DNA of 64,000 nucleotides from a virus (IMGVR_UViG_3300020191_000010:660-64659), one strand, 5' to 3'. Positions 1-9,640 are shown, numbered from the stretch's first letter. Translations and numbers: made by a program. Notes: generated by a model from the sequence alone, not told the origin.

Positions 1-744
1 GCAAATGTTATTGAATGGTGCGGTTGGTGTGCAGTTGATGTAGACGATTATAAATTTGATGGTGAATTAAAAGATGCAATCCTTAATCATACCCGTAACT
101 GGCGTTTCGTTTGTTATTCTACTGCTAGCAGTACTCTCGATTATCCGAAGTTTAGACTTGTATTTCCACTTAAAAGAAAAATATCGAATAAGGAAATTCC
201 TCGTTTCAACTTTGCGTTACAGAATGCACTCGGAGGAATCGGAGATGAACAAACAAAAGATCTTGCTAGAATGTATTACATTCCTGCTAATTATGTCGGG
301 GCTAACAATTTTATCTTCTCTCACGATGGCGATTATGTTGATCCAGATGCTTTAATAAAGGAATTCCCTTATGCCGAAAAAACCAATTCAAGCAAATTCT
401 TTGATCGACTCCCAGAAGAACTCCAAAGACAAATCGTCGAGCACAGAAAATCAAGAATGGACAACACTGACATACGGTGGACGTCCTATCGCGACTGTCC
501 CTTCTTCCCTCGTAATCTCGAAAAAGAATACAGAGTCATAAGCAATACCGGTTGGTATCATAAAATGTATCAGATAATGGTTGCTATTGCTGGTAATGCT
601 ATTAAGAAAGAATATCCTATTACTGCAGATGAAATAGCTTCCCTTTGTAGAGAATTAGATATGGAAACTGGTAATTGGTATAAAAGTAGACCACTAGATA
701 AAGAAGCAGATCGTGCACTTGAATACGTTTATAGAAACATTTGA
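1..744 (+). CDS. Primase/prim-pol-like protein (AEP-type with PriCT-like C-terminus), 5'-truncated by the window
   Basis: Frame 1 is open from base 1 (ANVIEWCGWCAVDVDD...YSTASS...PKFRLVFPL) and runs into the listed 271..744 ORF. The DxD and 'ST.S....PKFRLVFPL' motifs resemble phage AEP primases. Confidence 0.55.
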   Translation, partial: ANVIEWCGWCAVDVDDYKFDGELKDAILNHTRNWRFVCYSTASSTLDYPKFRLVFPLKRKISNKEIPRFNFALQNALGGIGDEQTKDLARMYYIPANYVGANNFIFSHDGDYVDPDALIKEFPYAEKTNSSKFFDRLPEELQRQIVEHRKSRMDNTDIRWTSYRDCPFFPRNLEKEYRVISNTGWYHKMYQIMVAIAGNAIKKEYPITADEIASLCRELDMETGNWYKSRPLDKEADRALEYVYRNI

Positions 745-1516: not shown

Positions 1517-1731
1517 TGAAAAATACTATTCAAGTTGGTGATCTTATTAGTACCAGACATGGTACATCTAAAATCAAAAAGATTGAACTATGCGAAAAGC
1601 CTGGTGAAAAATATGGCATTCCTGTAAAAAGGGTATTTACAAATCTCCTAGATCGTGTTATAATAGATCTAGAAAATGGACACTGGACATATGGTTCAGA
1701 TGCGGAGGTTATTAATGAAAGAGTCTCTTAA
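1516..1731 (+). CDS. Hypothetical protein
   Basis: TAATG-coupled to the upstream ORF. Confidence 0.7.
   Translation: MKNTIQVGDLISTRHGTSKIKKIELCEKPGEKYGIPVKRVFTNLLDRVIIDLENGHWTYGSDAEVINERVS
1636..1664 (+). promoter_or_regulatory. Sigma70-type promoter upstream of the nucleotide-modification operon
   Basis: TTTACA-N17-TATAAT. Confidence 0.6.
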
Positions 1732-2074
1732 AGTACTTCAGCGTGCTGCTGAAATACAAACACAAAAAAGTAACGATTATCAGAATCCAAGTTCTCGTAT
1801 TCGTCAGGCTATGTACTATCCTCGTGGCTGTGCAACTATTACTGATATTATGCTAGGTAAAATACTTCGTATCCAATCTGTACTTGAAGCTATGGAACAA
1901 GATCCTAGCTATACACCTAACTTCGAATCGCTCGAAGATTCTTGTGTAGATCTTATTAATTATTCTTCCTTCTTTGTAGCCTATATGAAAGGTGGTATTG
2001 AAGGTCAAGATCCTAATAATGATTTTCTAAATAGACCAAGGGTACAAAATACAAATGAACAGAGTGACGAGTAA
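1676..2074 (+). CDS. Nucleotide-modification-associated helical protein (Nmad1/DUF1599-like, MazG-related); likely start ATG 1715
   Basis: 'K..DY', 'K..R', 'ESLEDSCVDLINYS.F' motifs; adjacent to the TS homologue. Confidence 0.6.
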   Translation: MDTGHMVQMRRLLMKESLKVLQRAAEIQTQKSNDYQNPSSRIRQAMYYPRGCATITDIMLGKILRIQSVLEAMEQDPSYTPNFESLEDSCVDLINYSSFFVAYMKGGIEGQDPNNDFLNRPRVQNTNEQSDE

Positions 2075-2792
2075 AGACCTAGGTGAAGGTTTATATAAAT
2101 TAAGGCATTTGCTTTATCACCAAGGATATGAAATTCAAACAGCATCGTGGCAGGGTACCGAGTCTCCTCCTATTTTCCTCGAAGTACTTCATGCTGATTT
2201 GATATCAAAGATGAGTGACGATCCTGATGAGGCGTCCGATCTTTGCAATGCCACACAACCTTGGGCTAACACCCATTTCGAAGAACGTGTAGGTGGCTCT
2301 CCTCTCAACCCTCCGCCATCACACGTTATGTGGCTGAAGGACACTGATCAGTACCTATCTGGCCAGGCCTTCAGCCACTCATATCCAGAACGTATGTGGG
2401 CACCAAAAAGACCTGGCATACGATTCGAAACTGGTAATCTGAATGATGCAGTTGAACTTCTTAAGAAAGATCCTACTACTCGGCAGTGTTATATTCCTAT
2501 GTGGTTTCCTGAAGATCTAACTGCTGCAAATCAAGGTGAACGTGTACCCTGTTCTTTTGGTTGGCACTTTATTGAACGTGGCGATGAACTACATTGTTCA
2601 TATCATATGCGTTCATGCGACGTAGTACGCCACTTACATAATGACCTATACTTTGCAAATAGACTTGGTTTATGGTTAATTGAAAAAGCTGGATTAAATT
2701 GTAAAATGGGTTATTTACATTTTAGTTCAACTAGTTTACATTGTTTCCTGAATGATAGATATTCATTAGGAAGACTGATTGGAGTTAATTAA
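2055..2792 (+). CDS. Thymidylate-synthase-family protein, dCMP hydroxymethylase/methylase-like
   Basis: Catalytic 'PC' (ERVPCS), 'MRSCDVVRHLHND' and 'SLHCF'. Asp occupies the position of ThyA Asn177, as in T4 gp42. Confidence 0.8.
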   Translation: MNRVTSKDLGEGLYKLRHLLYHQGYEIQTASWQGTESPPIFLEVLHADLISKMSDDPDEASDLCNATQPWANTHFEERVGGSPLNPPPSHVMWLKDTDQYLSGQAFSHSYPERMWAPKRPGIRFETGNLNDAVELLKKDPTTRQCYIPMWFPEDLTAANQGERVPCSFGWHFIERGDELHCSYHMRSCDVVRHLHNDLYFANRLGLWLIEKAGLNCKMGYLHFSSTSLHCFLNDRYSLGRLIGVN

Positions 2793-4087
2793 TGTGTGGT
2801 TTTGTAGCATATCCTACTGGTAGAAATCCTGAATCTGTTATTCGCAATATTGGATATCGTGGCCTTCCAGAATTTATTGGCCATAGAGAATTCGAAGGAT
2901 TTACCTTTGCGCATATTGCATTACCATTTGTTAATCTAGATCCAGATATTGCTATACAGCCAGTTGGTGATGACTTCCCTGGTTTATTTGTTGGCGAAAT
3001 ATTTAATTTTAATTCTGAAAAATATGAAACAGATGCCCAACAAATCCATGACGATTTCTTTTATGGTGAATTTGGTTTCGATTCATTAATGAATTATGAT
3101 GGATTCTTTACCTATGTTACTGTAATGGGTGATTACTTATTTGGTATAACAGATCATCTCGGTATTAAGCCTCTCTATTATCGTACTGATATGGAAGCAA
3201 TGGCATCTGAAATCGATGTACTAAAACTCTTTGGCCCAGTTACAATCGATGAAACATTTATGTCAAATACTTTAAAGTGGGGTTATTCACCAGATCCAAG
3301 AACACCATTTAATGAAATTAAACAGCTTCCACCTGGTCATTTTATCCATCAAGGTGTTATACATAATTATTGGGATTGGGAAAAAGTTAAAACCGATACC
3401 TTATATAATGATATGAAACGTTCAGTTGTATCCAGACTTAGTGGTCAAAGAGAAGTTTCTATGCTACTATCAGGCGGATTAGATTCTAGTATTATACATG
3501 GTCTTCTCAAAGAGATTGGTCATGACATTACCTGTATCCATGTAGAAAATCACGAAAAAGACTTTGCACATCTTGTATCAGATAATCTTGTTGAGGTAAC
3601 ACTTGATGATGTATCTGATGAGGAAGCAGTTAGTATTCATCAATCACCGGTAGATCTTGGTTCAGTTAAACCACAGATTGCTATGGCTAGAAAGCTACGC
3701 GAATTAGGTTTCCATGCAGTTATGACTGGCGATGGCGCAGATGAATTATTCGGTGGATATAGACGTGCAAAAGAATATGATAGTCAGTATTCCGATACAT
3801 TTGTCGAACTACCATACTATCATCTTCCCAAACTAGATCGGACTATGATGAGATCTACAATCGAACTTCGTGCGCCATTCCTGGCACCATATATTGTTAA
3901 ACATGCATTGAATACGCCTTATTCACTTCGCAATGGTGAAAAGAAAGTCTTAAAAGAAGTATTCAAAGATATTGTTCCTAAGGAGATTCTGAATCGTGAA
4001 AAGCATCCTCTCAAAACTGACAAGATCAGAAAAGACCCAATCGATCAAAGAATCATCAACGACGGAATCTTTAGAACAATCCAATAA
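2792..4087 (+). CDS. Asparagine-synthetase-B-like glutamine amidotransferase
   Basis: N-terminal MCG (Ntn Cys), 'D.LGIKPLYY', PP-loop 'LSGGLDSS', 'TGDGADELFGGY', 'ELRAPFL'. Confidence 0.9.
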   Translation: MCGFVAYPTGRNPESVIRNIGYRGLPEFIGHREFEGFTFAHIALPFVNLDPDIAIQPVGDDFPGLFVGEIFNFNSEKYETDAQQIHDDFFYGEFGFDSLMNYDGFFTYVTVMGDYLFGITDHLGIKPLYYRTDMEAMASEIDVLKLFGPVTIDETFMSNTLKWGYSPDPRTPFNEIKQLPPGHFIHQGVIHNYWDWEKVKTDTLYNDMKRSVVSRLSGQREVSMLLSGGLDSSIIHGLLKEIGHDITCIHVENHEKDFAHLVSDNLVEVTLDDVSDEEAVSIHQSPVDLGSVKPQIAMARKLRELGFHAVMTGDGADELFGGYRRAKEYDSQYSDTFVELPYYHLPKLDRTMMRSTIELRAPFLAPYIVKHALNTPYSLRNGEKKVLKEVFKDIVPKEILNREKHPLKTDKIRKDPIDQRIINDGIFRTIQ

Positions 4088-4535
4088 ATGGGATAAAAGA
4101 TATATGCAGCTGGCTAAAGAAGCTGCTAGTTGGTCGAAAGATCCTTCAACTAAAATTGGTGCAGTTTGTATTGGATCTAAAGGTCAAGTATTATCTACAG
4201 GCTATAATGGGTTTCCCCGGGGTATAGACGATAGTCTTACTCGTTACTATGATCGGGAATTAAAATATAAAATGGTAGTTCACGCAGAAATGAATGCCAT
4301 TTTTAATGCAACATACAACGGTGTTTCACTCGATGGATCAACAATGTATGTTCATGGATTACCTGTTTGTTCAGATTGTGCAAAAGGTATTATCCAAGTC
4401 GGCGTCAAGAGAATTGTTATGGACGGATCAATTCCAGATAGGTGGAAAGACTCTTGGCAATTAACACAAAAAATGTTTAACGAAGCAAATGTTAAATGGG
4501 AGTTAACCAATGTCAGCAACCCAAGAATGGATTAA
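3996..4535 (+). CDS. cd: dCMP deaminase
   Basis: 'SKDPSTKIGA', 'GYNGFPRG', 'HAEMNA', 'PVCSDC'. GTG start with AGGAG 10 nt upstream. Confidence 0.92.
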   Translation: MKSILSKLTRSEKTQSIKESSTTESLEQSNKWDKRYMQLAKEAASWSKDPSTKIGAVCIGSKGQVLSTGYNGFPRGIDDSLTRYYDRELKYKMVVHAEMNAIFNATYNGVSLDGSTMYVHGLPVCSDCAKGIIQVGVKRIVMDGSIPDRWKDSWQLTQKMFNEANVKWELTNVSNPRMD

Positions 4536-4686
4536 AAAGCAGTATCAAAATGAGCGCGGCGTCGTAGGTGAAAATGTGGAATACACAAATATGCGATTAA
4601 GCAGAGAAGCTATGGATTTAAAAGAAAGGGTTAAGAAACTAGAAACTGACATGGCATTTTTAATAAAAGAAAAAAATGAAGAATAA
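4510..4686 (+). CDS. Small hypothetical coiled-coil protein (58 aa; not in the ORF track)
   Basis: MSATQEWIKKQY...KEKNEE*, GGAG upstream, fills the gap between cd and the UDG-like gene. Confidence 0.55.
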   Translation: MSATQEWIKKQYQNERGVVGENVEYTNMRLSREAMDLKERVKKLETDMAFLIKEKNEE

Positions 4687-5032
4687 AATCCTAATCATTG
4701 GACATAGTCCAGCCAAAAAGAATATACTTAAGTCTCCTACTATGAAAAGACTTCATAAGTGGATGGATGAATGTGGTATCGATTTCTATGGCTTTACTAA
4801 TCTTTGTTATGAACCTAAGGCGAAGCTAAAAGAAGAAGATATCTTTTTGACTGATATGTCTGGTCACAGGATTATAGCATTAGGAGGATTCGTTTCCAAA
4901 TATTTAAATAAATTGGGTGTGGAGCACTTTGCTGCTCCGCATCCATCACCATTGAATAGAAACCTAAATGATAAATCATTTGAAAATAAAATTATTAATG
5001 AATTAAAGGTTTACACTCAGGCTATATTATGA
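4676..5032 (+). CDS. Minimal uracil-DNA glycosylase superfamily protein
   Basis: 'ILIIGHSP', 'FTNL', 'IIALG', 'PHPSPLNR'. Confidence 0.75.
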   Translation: MKNKILIIGHSPAKKNILKSPTMKRLHKWMDECGIDFYGFTNLCYEPKAKLKEEDIFLTDMSGHRIIALGGFVSKYLNKLGVEHFAAPHPSPLNRNLNDKSFENKIINELKVYTQAIL

Positions 5033-5038
5033 TATAAT
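5010..5038 (+). promoter_or_regulatory. Sigma70-type promoter for uvsX
   Basis: TTTACA-N17-TATAAT. Confidence 0.7.
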
Positions 5039-5063
5039 ATGTACATCAATTCAGGAGAGATAT

Positions 5064-6098
5064 ATGAGTATTATGGATAAACTCAAAAAGAATAGTAAGA
5101 TCAAAGAAACTTCTATTCTTGCAGATTCGAAATTTTTTAATAGCCAGGATATGGTACCAACAGACGTTCCTATGATTAATGTTGCCCTATCCGGTTCCGT
5201 GGATGGCGGACTTGCGCCAGGACTTACAGTACTAGCTGGCCCATCCAAACACTTTAAGACTTCCTTCGGTCTTATTATGGCATCAGCTTACTTGAAAAAG
5301 TATCCTGATGCCGTAATACTTTTCTATGATTCAGAATTTGGTTCTCCGCAATCTTATTTTGAACAATTTGATATCGATACATCACGAGTACTTCATACAC
5401 CTATTACAGATGTAGAAGTATTAAAATTCGATATTATTGGCCAGCTAGAAGAACTAGATCGTAATGATAAGGTTATTATTATGATCGATTCTATCGGCAA
5501 CTTGGCTTCAAAGAAAGAAATGGAAGATGCGATTAACGAGAAATCGGTTGCTGATATGTCACGCGCGAAAGCCCTTAAAGGTCTTTTCCGTATGGTTACG
5601 CCGTATCTTAACATGAAAGATATTCCACTCATTGCTATCAATCATACATATCAAGAGATGGGATTATTCCCTAAAGCAATTGTTTCTGGTGGTACTGGTA
5701 TTTATTACAGTGCAAATAATATCTGGATTCTTGGTCGTCAACAAGACAAACAAGGTACAGAGATTAAAGGCTACCACTTTGTAATTAATGTGGAGAAATC
5801 GCGTTATGTTAGGGAAAAGTCAAAGATTCCTATTTCGGTGTCTTGGGAAGGTGGAGTACAAAAGTGGTCTGGTCTTCTTGACGTTGCTCTCGAAGGTAAA
5901 TATGTTGCTAAGCCGTCTAATGGCTGGTATTGCAGGGTTAGCCGGGAGACTGGTGAATTACTTGAGCCAAAAGTACGAGAAAAACAAACACTAGAAGAAG
6001 AATTCTGGTTACCTATTTTAGAAGAAACCGATTTTAAAGAGTTCTTAAAGACTAGGTATTGTATTGGTAACTCTTTAATTCAACCGGAGGAATGCTAG
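5064..6098 (+). CDS. uvsX: UvsX RecA-like recombinase
   Basis: 'AGPSKHFKT', 'YDSEFG', 'DSIGNLASKKE', 'DMSRAK', 'GGTGIYYSA'. Confidence 0.97.
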   Translation: MSIMDKLKKNSKIKETSILADSKFFNSQDMVPTDVPMINVALSGSVDGGLAPGLTVLAGPSKHFKTSFGLIMASAYLKKYPDAVILFYDSEFGSPQSYFEQFDIDTSRVLHTPITDVEVLKFDIIGQLEELDRNDKVIIMIDSIGNLASKKEMEDAINEKSVADMSRAKALKGLFRMVTPYLNMKDIPLIAINHTYQEMGLFPKAIVSGGTGIYYSANNIWILGRQQDKQGTEIKGYHFVINVEKSRYVREKSKIPISVSWEGGVQKWSGLLDVALEGKYVAKPSNGWYCRVSRETGELLEPKVREKQTLEEEFWLPILEETDFKEFLKTRYCIGNSLIQPEEC

Positions 6099-6409
6099 TG
6101 TCTTTAGACTTACAAAGAAAGTCTGAAGGGGTACATTATGAGTTGATCCCTTCAGATGAACATGAACAGGCCTGGAACGTACGTATTCTAGAAGGTGACT
6201 TTGTTGAGACAGTACTTCAGTATGGAGCTATCTCTTTTAACAAAGTTCGCGAAGGTGAGATGAATTTTAATTTTTCAATTGTATCTACACCAGACCAGGA
6301 CCTGGAAGTTAGTAACTTAGATCTACAAGAGGAAGCAGGTGATATACTTCAATCTGTTATTGCACAGGCTATTTCTGATGGATCATTAATGACAAAGGAA
6401 GAAGAATAG
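6092..6409 (+). CDS. Hypothetical protein, positionally like T4 gp40
   Basis: Acidic ~105-aa ORF between uvsX and gene 41. Confidence 0.45.
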   Translation: MLVSLDLQRKSEGVHYELIPSDEHEQAWNVRILEGDFVETVLQYGAISFNKVREGEMNFNFSIVSTPDQDLEVSNLDLQEEAGDILQSVIAQAISDGSLMTKEEE

Positions 6410-6411
6410 AT

Positions 6412-6603
6412 ATGGCACTAACATCAGATATTGATCGTATTATTATGTTAATGGAAGAAATAGCATATGCAGAATCTCAGCTCCAACCTCATGATACAGG
6501 TCATATTAATACTGCAATTGCTTGGATGCAAAAAAGAGTAAACGAAATCAAGGATAAATCTAAAAATGAAAATTCTAGTTATGGGCCTGCCGGGCGCAGG
6601 TAA
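6412..6603 (+). CDS. Hypothetical protein
   Basis: Tightly packed ORF. Confidence 0.6.
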   Translation: MALTSDIDRIIMLMEEIAYAESQLQPHDTGHINTAIAWMQKRVNEIKDKSKNENSSYGPAGRR

Positions 6604-6982
6604 AACCTGGCTATCAGAAAGACTACAAAAATATTTAGGATCAGCATGGTATAATGCAGATAAAGTTCGCGAGATGGCGAATGATTGGGACTTCTCTCCT
6701 GAAGGTAGGGTAAGACAGGCAAATCGAATGAAGACATTCGCTGACTATGAAAAATCTCATGGTCGATATGTCATCTGCGATTTTGTCTGTCCTACTCGAC
6801 AAACAAGAGACGCCTTTAATCCAGATCTAGTCATTTGGTTAAATACTATCGAAGAAGGAAGGTTTGAAGATACAAATAATATGTTTGAAAAACCTGAACT
6901 AGTTGATTGGGTAGTAGAAGGATTCTTATCCGATAGAGAAATCGAAGAAATCGCTACAGAAATAAAGGGTTACGGTGTATAA
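6566..6982 (+). CDS. Adenylyl-sulfate-kinase-like P-loop kinase
   Basis: 'GLPGAGKT', 'NADKVR', 'DFSPEGR', 'DFVCP'. Confidence 0.75.
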   Translation: MKILVMGLPGAGKTWLSERLQKYLGSAWYNADKVREMANDWDFSPEGRVRQANRMKTFADYEKSHGRYVICDFVCPTRQTRDAFNPDLVIWLNTIEEGRFEDTNNMFEKPELVDWVVEGFLSDREIEEIATEIKGYGV

Positions 6983-7418
6983 AATGGCTGATATTATTAT
7001 TAAAGAATTCGACTGGAAAAATCCAACAGTACAGATGCTTGGGCGTTGGCAACCATGGCATGATGGTCATTCAGAACTATTTAAAAGATGCCATGCTATG
7101 ACTGGACAAGTAGCTATTATGATCCGTACAGTACCAGAATCACGCGAAGCAAATTCACGTGTTCCTGGTCAAGATGATAATCCATTTGATATTAAAACTG
7201 TAAAAGAAAATATTCGTTTGGGATTAAAAAAAGAAGGGTTTACAGAAGACGAAGATTACGTTATAATGATCGTACCAAACATCGTTGACATTGGATATGG
7301 ACGTGGCGTTGGGTATACATTTACAGAACACGATCTTGGAAAAGAAGTACATTCTATTTCAGCTACTAAGATTCGTGAACAGATGAGGGAAGAAGGTAAA
7401 CTTGCAAAAAAACATTGA
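6975..7418 (+). CDS. HxGH (cytidylyltransferase-like) nucleotidyltransferase
   Basis: 'GRWQPWHDGH' and 'ISATKIR'. Confidence 0.8.
   Translation: MYKMADIIIKEFDWKNPTVQMLGRWQPWHDGHSELFKRCHAMTGQVAIMIRTVPESREANSRVPGQDDNPFDIKTVKENIRLGLKKEGFTEDEDYVIMIVPNIVDIGYGRGVGYTFTEHDLGKEVHSISATKIREQMREEGKLAKKH
7239..7267 (+). promoter_or_regulatory. Possible internal promoter for gene 41
   Basis: GGG-TTTACA-N17-TATAAT. Confidence 0.5.
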
Positions 7419-8769
7419 ACAGACTATTCTTCGTAATCTTTTAACAGACGAAAATTATATGCGGAAAGTTCTTCCGTTTATAAAGCCAGATTACTTCGAA
7501 GGTGTCTATCGTATATTATTTAAAGAAGCCGGTAAGTTTGTTGGAAAGTATAATAAGCTCCCAACTTCGGAATCGTTTATTATTGAACTTGATCAATCTG
7601 ATAGACTTACCGGTGAACAGTATTCTTTAGCGAATGATATTATTCCACATCTTTTTTCCAGAGAAGAAATTGATGAAAATTGGCTATTAGATACAACTGA
7701 AAAATGGTGTCAAGATAGAGCAATCTATAATGCTATTATGGAATCAATTACTATTATTGATGGTAAGCATGATTCCCTAACAAAAAATGCTTTACCTGAT
7801 CTTTTACAAAAAGCATTAGGTGTTGGATTTGATACTAATATTGGTCACGACTATATTGAAAATGTAGAAGAACGTTATGAATTTTATCATACAGAAGAAG
7901 ATCGTATACCATTTGATCTTCAGTATTTTAACAAGATTACAAAAGGTGGTGTACCAAATAAAACACTCAACATTGCCCTTGCAGGTACTGGCGTTGGCAA
8001 GTCTTTATTCATGTGTCATGTTGCTGCTAGTGCTTTGGTAGAAGGTAAGAATGTTCTTTACATCACGATGGAAATGGCAGAAGAACGTATTGCAGAACGT
8101 ATCGATGCAAATCTATTGAATATTCCTATTGATCAATTATCAAATGTTTCGAAAACAGATTTTACCCAAAAGGTTGCAAATCTTGCTAAGAAGACAACAG
8201 GTAAGCTAATTGTAAAAGAATATCCTACAGGATCAGCACATTCGGGTCATTTCCGTGCACTCTTAAATGAATTAAAACTAAAGAAACAATTTGAACCGGA
8301 TATTATCTTTATTGATTATCTTAATATTTGTTCATCATCAAGAATGAAAGGAATGGGTGGTGCTATCAATTCTTACACATATGTTAAAGCAATTGCAGAA
8401 GAACTCCGTGGTCTTGCGGTGGAATTCGATGTACCTGTTTTTAGCGCTACTCAGACTACGCGTTCTGGCTTTTCGAATTCGGATGTTGGTCTGGAGGACA
8501 CGTCTGAATCGTTTGGTCTCCCTGCCACGGCTGATCTTATGTTTGCTCTTGTTTCGACTGAGGAACTAGAAAAACAAGGACAAATAATGGTAAAACAGTT
8601 AAAGAATAGATATAATGATCCGACACTTCATAAGAGATTCGTTCTTGGCGTAGATCGTTCTAAAATGCGTCTTTATGATGTTGATGAAAACGAACAGGAT
8701 CTTACTGATGATACACCGGTCTTTGATAGAACAGAAGCAGGACAAAGATTTAAGGATTTTAAGCTATGA
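7402..8769 (+). CDS. 41: Replicative DNA helicase gp41
   Basis: 'AGTGVGKS', 'EMAEERIAERIDAN', 'KEYPT', 'IDYLNI', 'SESFGLP', 'QLKNRY'. Confidence 0.97.
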   Translation: MQKNIEQTILRNLLTDENYMRKVLPFIKPDYFEGVYRILFKEAGKFVGKYNKLPTSESFIIELDQSDRLTGEQYSLANDIIPHLFSREEIDENWLLDTTEKWCQDRAIYNAIMESITIIDGKHDSLTKNALPDLLQKALGVGFDTNIGHDYIENVEERYEFYHTEEDRIPFDLQYFNKITKGGVPNKTLNIALAGTGVGKSLFMCHVAASALVEGKNVLYITMEMAEERIAERIDANLLNIPIDQLSNVSKTDFTQKVANLAKKTTGKLIVKEYPTGSAHSGHFRALLNELKLKKQFEPDIIFIDYLNICSSSRMKGMGGAINSYTYVKAIAEELRGLAVEFDVPVFSATQTTRSGFSNSDVGLEDTSESFGLPATADLMFALVSTEELEKQGQIMVKQLKNRYNDPTLHKRFVLGVDRSKMRLYDVDENEQDLTDDTPVFDRTEAGQRFKDFKL

Positions 8770-8975
8770 AATATAAAAATTACGAATTAAGTACCTATTG
8801 GGGTGATGAAGAATATCATGATAGAAAAGCAAACGTTATGCGAAATAATAAAGGATTCTACGTAGAATTATATAAAGGGGAAGAACTAATTGAAGTTCGA
8901 ACCTTATATGACCATAGTGAAATCTATGCAGAGAATGCTGCAGAAAACTATGTGATAGGAATTTTAAATCCATGA
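8766..8975 (+). CDS. Hypothetical protein
   Basis: ATGA overlaps at both ends. Confidence 0.7.
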   Translation: MKYKNYELSTYWGDEEYHDRKANVMRNNKGFYVELYKGEELIEVRTLYDHSEIYAENAAENYVIGILNP

Positions 8976-9640
8976 GCGTAAAACTAATTAGTTATTCAAA
9001 GGGAGAGAAAGATGAAAGTCTCCAGGACATCATTGCGTATACAGCCCGTGTCTCGAATCCATCCAACCAAGACAATACCGAAACGTCAGAAAGACTATTA
9101 CGATATCTCATCCGAGAAAAACACTGGTCGCCCTTCGAAATGGTTAGCGCTTGCTTGGAAGTAACTACTACTCGTGATATTGCCCGTCAACTATTACGAC
9201 ATAGATCTTTTTCATTCCAAGAGTTTTCTCAGCGATATGCAGATCCTACACAAGATCTGAATTTTGTTATGAGACAAGCAAGACTTCAGGATACAAAAAA
9301 TAGACAAAATAGTATTGAACTATCTGATATGATGGATAGCGATGAAAGAGTTGATTTAGAATTAAATTGGTATAAACAACAGGCGGAAGTAGTAAATGCA
9401 GCAAGAAAATCATATGAATGGGCAATCAAAAATGGTATTGCCAAAGAACAAGCTCGCTCGGTTTTACCAGAAGGTATTATGGAATCTCGACTCTATGTTA
9501 ACGGCACCATTAGGTCCTGGATCCACTATGTCGACCTACGCTCTGGAAATGGAACGCAAAAAGAACACATTGAATTAGCTCGCGCGTGCTCGGCCGCGCT
9601 CGAACCAGTCTTTCCAATGATTAAGGAATTTTGCCATTAA
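8972..9640 (+). CDS. thyX: Flavin-dependent thymidylate synthase ThyX
   Basis: 'HWSPFE', 'RQLLRHRSFSFQEFSQRY', 'EQARSVLP', 'TQKEH'. Confidence 0.97.
   Translation: MSVKLISYSKGEKDESLQDIIAYTARVSNPSNQDNTETSERLLRYLIREKHWSPFEMVSACLEVTTTRDIARQLLRHRSFSFQEFSQRYADPTQDLNFVMRQARLQDTKNRQNSIELSDMMDSDERVDLELNWYKQQAEVVNAARKSYEWAIKNGIAKEQARSVLPEGIMESRLYVNGTIRSWIHYVDLRSGNGTQKEHIELARACSAALEPVFPMIKEFCH

Follow-up and report, generated by a model that had tools for sequence, protein, structure and literature searches.

The pathway from deoxycytidine (dC) to 5-hydroxymethyl-dC in phage T4, as compared here, comprises the gp56 dCTPase, the gp42 dCMP hydroxymethylase, the gp1 dNMP kinase and the Cd deaminase. Thymidine hypermodification in phages M6, ViI and PhiW-14, as set out in part in Lee et al. 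(NAR 2022, PMC8989533), starts from dUMP and leads from a thymidylate synthase (TS) homolog through a 5-hydroxymethyl pyrimidine and ATP activation to a nitrogen-bearing group, with a P-loop kinase that works on DNA and amino-acid:DNA transferases; amidotransferases are co-associated with such hypermodification genes. In Synechococcus phage S-B43, according to the relevant parts of Yang et al. (Nat Commun 2025, PMC12783734), CmoA makes carboxy-S-adenosylmethionine (carboxy-SAM), the C5-methyltransferase homolog CmoX makes 5-carboxymethylcytosine (5cxmC) in DNA, and the asparagine-synthetase homolog CmoY ligates glycine to this base in DNA. Here, we describe a locus in which a TS homolog is coupled to a gene for an AsnB-like protein. 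It lies in a 64,000-nt stretch of viral DNA (IMGVR_UViG_3300020191_000010:660-64659; hereafter the window, meaning the whole stretch analyzed), which is taken from an IMG/VR virus record of 64,659 bases (positions 660-64659) with an estimated completeness of 39%. The gene content of the window indicates a marine T4-like phage.

The locus shares with T4 a TS-fold enzyme carrying the same Asp and catalytic Cys, a dCMP deaminase alongside a separate thymidylate synthase, and a position next to uvsX, 41 and 61, like that of gene 42 (the T4 counterpart neighborhood, 61, 41, 40, uvsX, beta-gt and 42, includes the dCMP hydroxymethylase gene). It differs from T4 in that an AsnB-like enzyme is inserted and coupled to the TS homolog, no glucosyltransferase is adjacent, and no gp56 or gp1 counterpart was found in the window's partial record. 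Unlike the M6, ViI and PhiW-14 systems, it would act on cytosine and has a PP-loop protein of the AsnB type as its extra enzyme. The CmoY system offers a phage asparagine-synthetase homolog that acts on a cytosine C5 side chain, as we propose for the window. The CmoX/CmoY enzymes, however, act on DNA after replication and require a C5-methyltransferase homolog and carboxy-SAM (PMC12783734, in part), whereas the partner here is a TS homolog.

A full-text literature search found no paper on the pairing of a TS homolog with an AsnB-like protein. To that extent the literature agrees with a preliminary description of this stretch, which knew of no characterized pathway with the pairing; the description had, however, overlooked CmoY, the nearest precedent (PMC12783734, in part). 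TS-based pyrimidine hypermodification in phages and the AsnB-type CmoY are thus known, and what differs here is the setting of the AsnB-type enzyme. We hold, with moderate confidence, that these genes encode the central steps of a pre-replicative pathway by which cytosine in DNA is replaced or decorated, with the AsnB-like enzyme altering the product of the TS homolog.

The TS homolog has the features of a cytosine-type enzyme

The TS homolog matches Pfam Thymidylat_synt (PF00303; E 8.9e-7, 28.7 bits, over the cut-off) and phrog_160 (1.4e-29). Its motif MRSCDVVRHLHND aligns without gaps to MRSNDVVFGFRND of T4 gp42 and to RSCDVGLGVPFNI of TS, and therefore has an Asp at the column of TS Asn177 and gp42 Asp179, as the preliminary description had read it. 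This Asp, together with the catalytic Cys column, is found in 48 of 48 aligned TS rows, which represent the window, T4, three cultured phages, 4 large phages and 39 loci. Asp or Asn at this column switches the enzyme between dCMP and dUMP. Judged by its sequence, an assignment of the TS homolog to the cytosine type is supported.

The nearest relatives of the TS homolog (35-43% identity) are found in Streptomyces, Mycobacterium (Muddy), Gordonia and Serratia phages; the protein is nearest to actinophage enzymes and is not close to gp42, which gave no tblastn match. These relatives are annotated as 'thymidylate synthase' or, in one spring-water phage, as 'pyrimidine hmase'. The protein ends 16 residues past its SLH motif, without the extended C-terminus of TS. 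C-terminal deletions of TS have shown that this region is needed for the reductive step, and the short C-terminus hints at a better fit to a hydroxymethylase than to a reductive methylase.

Asp-type TS homologs are common without an AsnB-like gene, as in 259 GenBank phage records. Muddy (genes 45-49), Serbin and the spring-water phage MW202777 have sets of thymidylate kinase, all-alpha dUTPase/PRA-PH, TS, dCMP deaminase and PolA genes, again with no AsnB-like gene, which suggests a T4-like kit for replaced cytosine. Muddy, a therapy phage, and Serbin have an extra uncharacterized protein of 270-300 aa beside TS that was not seen in the spring-water phage; the 48 loci contain no relative of either protein (Muddy gp47 or Serbin 051).

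The AsnB-like gene is linked to the TS homolog across unrelated phages

The two genes are physically joined in the window. The TS stop codon TAA (2790-2792) and the AsnB-like start codon ATG (2792-2794) have their last and first A in common, giving the TAATG junction that the preliminary description reported. It had also placed the pair in a five-gene operon at 1676-5032, and the five genes indeed lie on one strand (+), overlapping or abutting, between the primase and uvsX genes, with identities assigned by Pfam and PHROG. The TS start codon at 2055 falls 20 nt inside the upstream Nmad1 open reading frame (ORF), whose stop codon is at 2072-2074, and a 58-codon ORF separates the dCMP deaminase gene from the uracil-DNA glycosylase (UDG)-superfamily gene.

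We assembled 258 loci with an AsnB-like gene, including the 46 loci of a first scan; clustering gave 152 groups at 98% identity and 48 lineages at 70%. Among the 46 closest loci, the order TS-AsnB-dCMP deaminase holds in 38 of 38 that reach upstream of the AsnB-like gene, and the deaminase gene directly follows the AsnB-like gene in 43, with the remaining 3 loci ending there. Each of the 48 lineages was represented by a single locus, and neighbors were counted among its ORFs within 8 kb. These stop-to-stop ORFs were grouped into families by single-linkage clustering of blastp matches (E 1e-6, 50% coverage). Because of this procedure, the counts are lower bounds.

The pair co-occurs across phages, as the preliminary proposal would have it: a TS homolog of the same family lies within 8 kb in 39 of the 48 lineages. 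Of the 9 lineages without a nearby TS homolog, 6 are large gp23-linked phages and 3 are short or cut contigs. Five large records with A2-type AsnB-like genes include four that carry a same-family Asp-type TS homolog (259-264 aa) elsewhere; the fifth, without a TS match, is 51% complete. No complete record was seen with an AsnB-like gene and without a same-family TS homolog.

The backbones that carry the AsnB-like gene include gp23-type myoviruses, PolA phages, PolA2/SSB/PD-(D/E)XK phages and jumbo phages (245-349 kb). Because these backbones differ, the linkage is not merely conserved T4 gene order, and the data support a functional link between the AsnB-like gene and the TS homolog. Moreover, the TS homolog often occurs without the AsnB-like gene, the reverse was not seen in any complete record, and this asymmetry fits an add-on step downstream of TS.

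The AsnB-like protein departs from asparagine synthetases at its substrate site

The AsnB-like protein has an Ntn-type N-terminal domain starting with MCG and a PP-loop (SGGLDS) adenylating domain. It matches Pfam Asn_synthase (PF00733, 3.1e-33) and, weakly, GATase_7 (21.3 bits versus a cut-off of 25). An AlphaFold2 (AF2) model predicts the full two-domain fold (pLDDT 82.9, pTM 0.86), for which the best match is E. coli AsnB (1ct9, E 4.8e-21), with further matches to human ASNS (6gq3), TsnB9, beta-lactam synthetase and carbapenam synthetase. With AsnB and ASNS it has in common the N-terminal Cys, the SGGLDS PP-loop, GDGADELFGGY and the catalytic Lys at AsnB K449 (human K466).

In contrast to these enzymes, the protein is about 120 residues shorter (431 versus 553 aa in AsnB), the last 100 residues being absent, and it scores 162.3 bits against TIGR01536, below the curated cut-off of 267.1. 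It also has invariant residues specific to its family, namely a YDSQxSD loop, R325, H344 (AsnB D384), D314 (AsnB E348) and R380. By these sequence measures, it is not an ordinary asparagine synthetase. The AF2 model has a single long segment of low confidence (residues 324-342, about 3761-3817); it contains the YDSQxSD motif and probably forms a mobile lid over the substrate.

In human ASNS, the equivalents of AsnB E348, D351 and D384 (E364, D367 and D400) bind the amino group of aspartyl-AMP (PMC6748925, in part). In the window, D351 is kept as D317, as is E318, while E348 is replaced by Asp314 and D384 by His344. Across 49 of 49 sequences, D288, G290, S291, D314, D317, E318, R325, H344, E358, R360, R380, K384 and K404 are invariant or nearly so. 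We argue from this invariance, which holds whatever the neighboring genes, that the synthetase site would act on one substrate across lineages. The protein is acidic (isoelectric point 5.3), a weak hint at a small-molecule rather than a DNA substrate.

The glutaminase domain is less uniform. AsnB Arg49 serves in glutamine binding and Asn74 in the oxyanion hole, and the window clade has Ala43 and Val67 at these columns. Across the wider family, Cys2 is present in 123 of 139 sequences, Arg49 in 105 and Asn74 in 33, compared with 139 of 139 for the PP-loop Ser/Gly. The preliminary description had called the Ntn domain complete, which is right for Cys2 and wrong for these two columns; its choice of glutamine as the nitrogen source is correspondingly doubtful for the window clade.

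The AsnB-like family is found in uncultured viruses

The family is a large one, made up of short proteins (about 430-470 aa). When 1.84 billion representative proteins were searched with a profile of 13 of its sequences, 2,727 matches were obtained at E 1e-30 or better; the best 150 of these are nearly all full-length, at about 400-520 aa. Three profile scans of IMG/VR confirmed overlapping sets of stretches, with at least 566 in the first and 392 and 460 in the other two. By tblastn with three family members, nothing above 30% identity was found in 50,697 GenBank phage records, and a scan of one genome per species across 185,579 prokaryote species yielded no relatives other than ordinary AsnB proteins, at 26-36% identity. 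As far as current data show, the family is thus confined to uncultured viruses. One weak AsnB match, a 'Bacteriophage sp.' scaffold (MT835487), encodes an AsnB of ordinary length (621 aa) with no informative annotation and was dropped.

A nucleotide search with window positions 1600-5100 gave no match among GenBank phages. Sequence near-identical to positions 1600-8800 is present in contigs of 20 public runs from 17 studies, labeled as salt marsh, estuary or generic metagenome and dated 2018-2025 (13 of the 20 runs are 2018 salt-marsh samples, four of which may be where the record came from). This recurrence indicates a phage that returns in coastal waters.

The remaining genes of the module and its surroundings

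The features of the window are collected in Table 1, and the neighbors of the AsnB-like gene across lineages in Table 2.

Table 1. Features in and around the module, in window coordinates.
Feature	Coordinates	Strand	Basis
Primase fragment	1-744		phrog_9765, 9.3e-35
DUF1599/Nmad1-like small helical protein	ORF from 1676, likely 1715-2074	+	Pfam DUF1599; phrog_18404
TS homolog, cytosine type; putative dCMP C5-hydroxymethylase or methylase	2055-2792	+	PF00303; phrog_160
AsnB-like two-domain enzyme	2792-4087	+	PF00733; AF2 fold match to AsnB
dCMP deaminase	GTG 3996 or ATG 4104 to 4535	+	PF00383; phrog_174
UDG-superfamily protein, 118 aa	4676-5032	+	PF03167
UvsX	5064-6098		
Small P-loop kinase and overlapping 147-aa protein	6566-7418		Kinase: Pfam APS_kinase 5.6e-7, AAA_18/AAA_33
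Gene-41-type DnaB helicase	7402-8769		
ThyX, flavin-dependent thymidylate synthase	8972-9640	+	PF02511, 2.4e-41

Table 2. Gene families near the AsnB-like gene in the 48 lineages (antisense shadow ORF families left out).
Family	Lineages	Remarks
TS homolog	39/48	same family, always same strand
dCMP deaminase	29/48	
C5-methyltransferase homolog	26/48	
PRA-PH pyrophosphatase	19/48	
SNF2 helicase	19/48	
P-loop kinase-like u7	18/48	abuts AsnB-like gene; motifs EGPDGSGK, DR
All-alpha dUTPase-like family u8	15/48	
PolA	14/48	
N6/N4 methyltransferase	12/48	
P-loop kinase-like u12	9/48	abuts AsnB-like gene; motif EGxRNSGK
DUF6378	8/48	
ThyX	7/48	

The first gene of the module encodes a protein that the preliminary description took to be MazG-like and to remove the competing dNTP. 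It matches DUF1599, 'Nucleotide modification associated domain 1' (E 6.1e-4; 20.5 bits, under the 25-bit cut-off), and phrog_18404, 'hydrolase' (4.1e-11). Its likely start is at 1715, since relatives begin MKESLKV, and its AF2 model (pLDDT 88.5) predicts three long helices. We found no Pfam MazG or PRA-PH match, a PDB sequence search allowing E values as high as 10 was likewise negative, and the best Foldseek match has an E value of 1.1, with MazG-related chains appearing only at E 3.9-5.7 (TM 0.33-0.42). With no significant match to MazG or to any solved structure, a dNTPase role is unsupported. The gene is also absent from the complete relative G006, whose AsnB-like protein and TS homolog are 60% and 73% identical to those of the window. 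G006 has a PRA-PH gene just upstream of its primase gene and neither the u7 nor the u12 kinase. A PRA-PH/MazG-type gene is the likelier source of a dNTP-clearing enzyme than Nmad1, and tblastn with family members found none of PRA-PH, u8, u7 or u12 in the window's 39%-complete record.

Kinase-like genes are frequent partners elsewhere: the thymidylate-kinase-like P-loop families u7 and u12 together overlap or abut the AsnB-like gene on its upstream side in 27 of the 48 lineages (L045:5546-6013, L052:7460-7999). The P-loop kinase of the window lies with its overlapping 147-aa protein, which has no Pfam match, between uvsX and gene 41, an arrangement found in only some relatives. Instead of an APS kinase, this protein may be the nucleotide kinase that is otherwise missing.

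The dCMP deaminase matches dCMP_cyt_deam_1 (PF00383, 5e-22) and phrog_174 (2.1e-46), and its start is uncertain. Upstream of the conserved KWDKRY, the sole in-frame start is GTG 3996, with no ATG; it would create a 92-nt overlap with the AsnB-like gene, and the deaminases of relatives begin just past the AsnB-like stop. The next ATG is at 4104. ThyX, which the preliminary description placed at 8972, is present there, and its position downstream of gene 41 is conserved in related loci. The UDG-like protein of that description also has a superfamily match over the cut-off (PF03167, 2e-6; 28.3 bits versus 24.3), with no PHROG match and no PDB sequence match. Its membership of the module is another matter: the gene holds its position only in the closest relatives and is elsewhere or not found in several others, and it is therefore loosely associated with the module and no constant member.

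A proposed route to a nitrogen-bearing cytosine

From what is known of these enzyme families, we infer the substrate, order of steps and product of the following scheme, as well as the nucleotide, rather than DNA, as the target of the AsnB-like enzyme; the kinase-like neighbors and the acidic protein favor a nucleotide. The TS homolog would add a one-carbon unit at C5 of dCMP, most likely yielding 5-hydroxymethyl-dCMP as T4 gp42 does. The AsnB-like enzyme, produced in step with the TS homolog through the TAATG junction, would use its PP-loop domain and ATP to activate an oxygen on this product, which would then be replaced or amidated, with glutamine or free ammonia as the nitrogen donor. The C5 side chain would thereby come to bear nitrogen, the simplest candidate being 5-aminomethyl; the preliminary description had likewise named aminomethyl- and carboxamide-type products as conjectural examples. 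Supply of dTMP may be maintained by the dCMP deaminase and ThyX, as it is by cd and td in T4, and a PRA-PH/MazG-type pyrophosphatase, seen in relatives and not in the partial record, may clear dCTP.

Several observations weigh against this pathway. AsnB-family enzymes of known chemistry adenylate carboxylates, and none is expected on the product of the TS homolog. To our knowledge, activation or replacement of a hydroxymethyl oxygen has no precedent in the AsnB family. Since D317 and E318, part of the site that in AsnB holds the amino group of aspartate, are kept, there is room for an amino-acid substrate, and since the Arg49 and Asn74 equivalents are replaced by Ala and Val, glutamine use in the window clade is doubtful. 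A C5-methyltransferase homolog in more than half of the lineages sits badly with full replacement of cytosine because such an enzyme requires that C5 be free. A tblastn search limited to family members found neither a dNMP kinase nor a dCTPase in the window, and no kinase in G006; the GenBank phage and prokaryote scans yielded no cultured phage or lysogen with a family member.

Alternative roles for the AsnB-like enzyme

We considered whether the AsnB-like enzyme might instead aminate the C4 carbonyl of dUMP, dTMP or 5-hydroxymethyl-dUMP to give the matching deoxycytidylate, and so feed or balance the dCMP pool of the TS homolog. GMP synthetase and TilS are PP-loop enzymes that adenylate ring carbonyls, so that such a reaction would need no carboxylate, and all of the neighbors are deoxypyrimidine enzymes (dCMP deaminase, ThyX, TMP-kinase-like proteins and NTP-pyrophosphatases). 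Such an activity would nevertheless set up a futile cycle with the adjacent dCMP deaminase, and it leaves unexplained why the AsnB-like gene always comes with an Asp-type TS homolog while the TS homolog is often alone. We also know of no AsnB-family member that carries out C4 amination, and we consider this role unlikely.

Slightly more doubtful, in our estimation, is an enzyme that activates an amino-acid carboxylate and joins it to the hydroxymethyl or amino group of a modified cytosine, its N-terminal domain being vestigial. The retention of D317 and E318 of the ASNS acidic pocket would suit such an activity, as would the loss of the Arg49 and Asn74 equivalents in the window clade. In most of the family, however, the presence of Cys2 (123/139) and Arg49 (105/139) argues for a working glutaminase next to an unchanged synthetase site, and the replacement of AsnB E348 and D384 by Asp and His is a further point against it.

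A CmoY-type enzyme that amidates a carboxyl side chain, such as that of 5-carboxymethylcytosine, already in DNA is a slighter prospect still. It has a precedent in CmoY itself: such amidation has been proposed for glutamine-type ligases next to CmoX, where a second, putative ligase cluster has a glutaminase domain (Yang et al. 2025, PMC12783734, in part). The AsnB-like gene also has, in 26 of 48 lineages, a nearby C5-methyltransferase homolog with an invariant motif-X Lys (18 of 18). This Lys, at the motif-X Asn, occupies the position of Arg350 of CmoX and of N374K of M.MpeI, the change that permits carboxy-SAM use. The Lys-type homolog would fall outside the set of Yang et al., because that set was filtered on SPPC and Arg.

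The methyltransferase homolog is divergent, with HPEC for PPC, MDD for ENV and a Cys-rich C-terminus (L155:9373-10788, L045:7818-8993, L218:10017-11201). In the complete, 65-kb genome of locus L218 (G011), its gene (G011:C1:17050-18243) spans one in-frame TAG.

The components of a CmoX/CmoY-type route are wanting near the window's family. PF00145 found nothing in the window's record or in 5 T4-like records, 2 of them complete, and a profile of the C5-methyltransferase homolog found nothing in G006 and G007, complete T4-like relatives with terminal repeats, or in the complete jumbo phage G002, while the positive controls G011 and G013 matched strongly. CmoA (TIGR00740) was found in 0 of 5 records searched, 3 of them at least 90% complete, with supply by the host possible; nor was it found in the one searched genome that has the Lys-type homolog.

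The synthetase site tells against this route as well. We compared it with that of gp124 (466 aa) of Streptomyces phage TurkishDelight. In this phage, gp124 belongs to a set that also includes gp123, which carries SPPC, ENV and a motif-X Arg, together with another methyltransferase and a pair of ParB-like genes. The gp124 protein has the same short two-domain build as the AsnB-like protein, and the generic catalytic residues are common to both. The two differ in being only 27.5% identical over 229 aa and in 28 of 61 key positions (33 are the same), the differing positions including D288, S291, D314, R325, Y329-S334, E339, H344, D349 and R380, which takes in nearly all of the family-specific positions. 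The acidic character of the AsnB-like protein is a further point against action on DNA. With no C5-methyltransferase homolog, no CmoA and a synthetase site unlike that of gp124, a CmoX/CmoY-type route is unlikely here. As the site is the same with or without a methyltransferase homolog, the substrate most likely comes from the TS homolog, the one universal partner.

Finally, an ordinary asparagine synthetase serving as a metabolic helper and linked to the module only by conserved T4-like gene order is very improbable: the top Pfam, NCBIfam and PDB matches are asparagine synthetases and the catalytic Lys, PP-loop and part of the aspartate pocket are kept, but the protein falls well short of the TIGR01536 cut-off (162 versus 267 bits) and of the length of AsnB, lacks the C-terminal 100 residues, belongs to a family not seen in cellular genomes above 36% identity, and recurs beside TS, kinase and pyrophosphatase genes in unrelated backbones (PolA, PolA2/SSB, gp23 and jumbo).

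Implications for uncultured phages

Modified bases are a main means by which phages escape restriction and CRISPR, and DNA technology draws on them for enzymes and building blocks. More tentatively than for the pre-replicative pathway as a whole, we suggest that this virus-only AsnB-like family may be the first of its superfamily to work on a deoxynucleotide, turning the product of a dCMP hydroxymethylase into a new cytosine derivative that bears nitrogen, such as 5-aminomethyl-dC. In many uncultured phages of marine, freshwater and soil habitats, among them abundant T4-like phages that infect Alphaproteobacteria, this base would take the place of cytosine. If true, a new cytosine derivative would join the set of known bases, and an AsnB-type enzyme would be shown at work in nucleotide metabolism. 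The family would have escaped isolate-based work, as it occurs in hundreds of IMG/VR stretches and in no cultured phage. The pathway may explain part of the biology of the common uncultured T4-like phages of salt marshes and estuaries.

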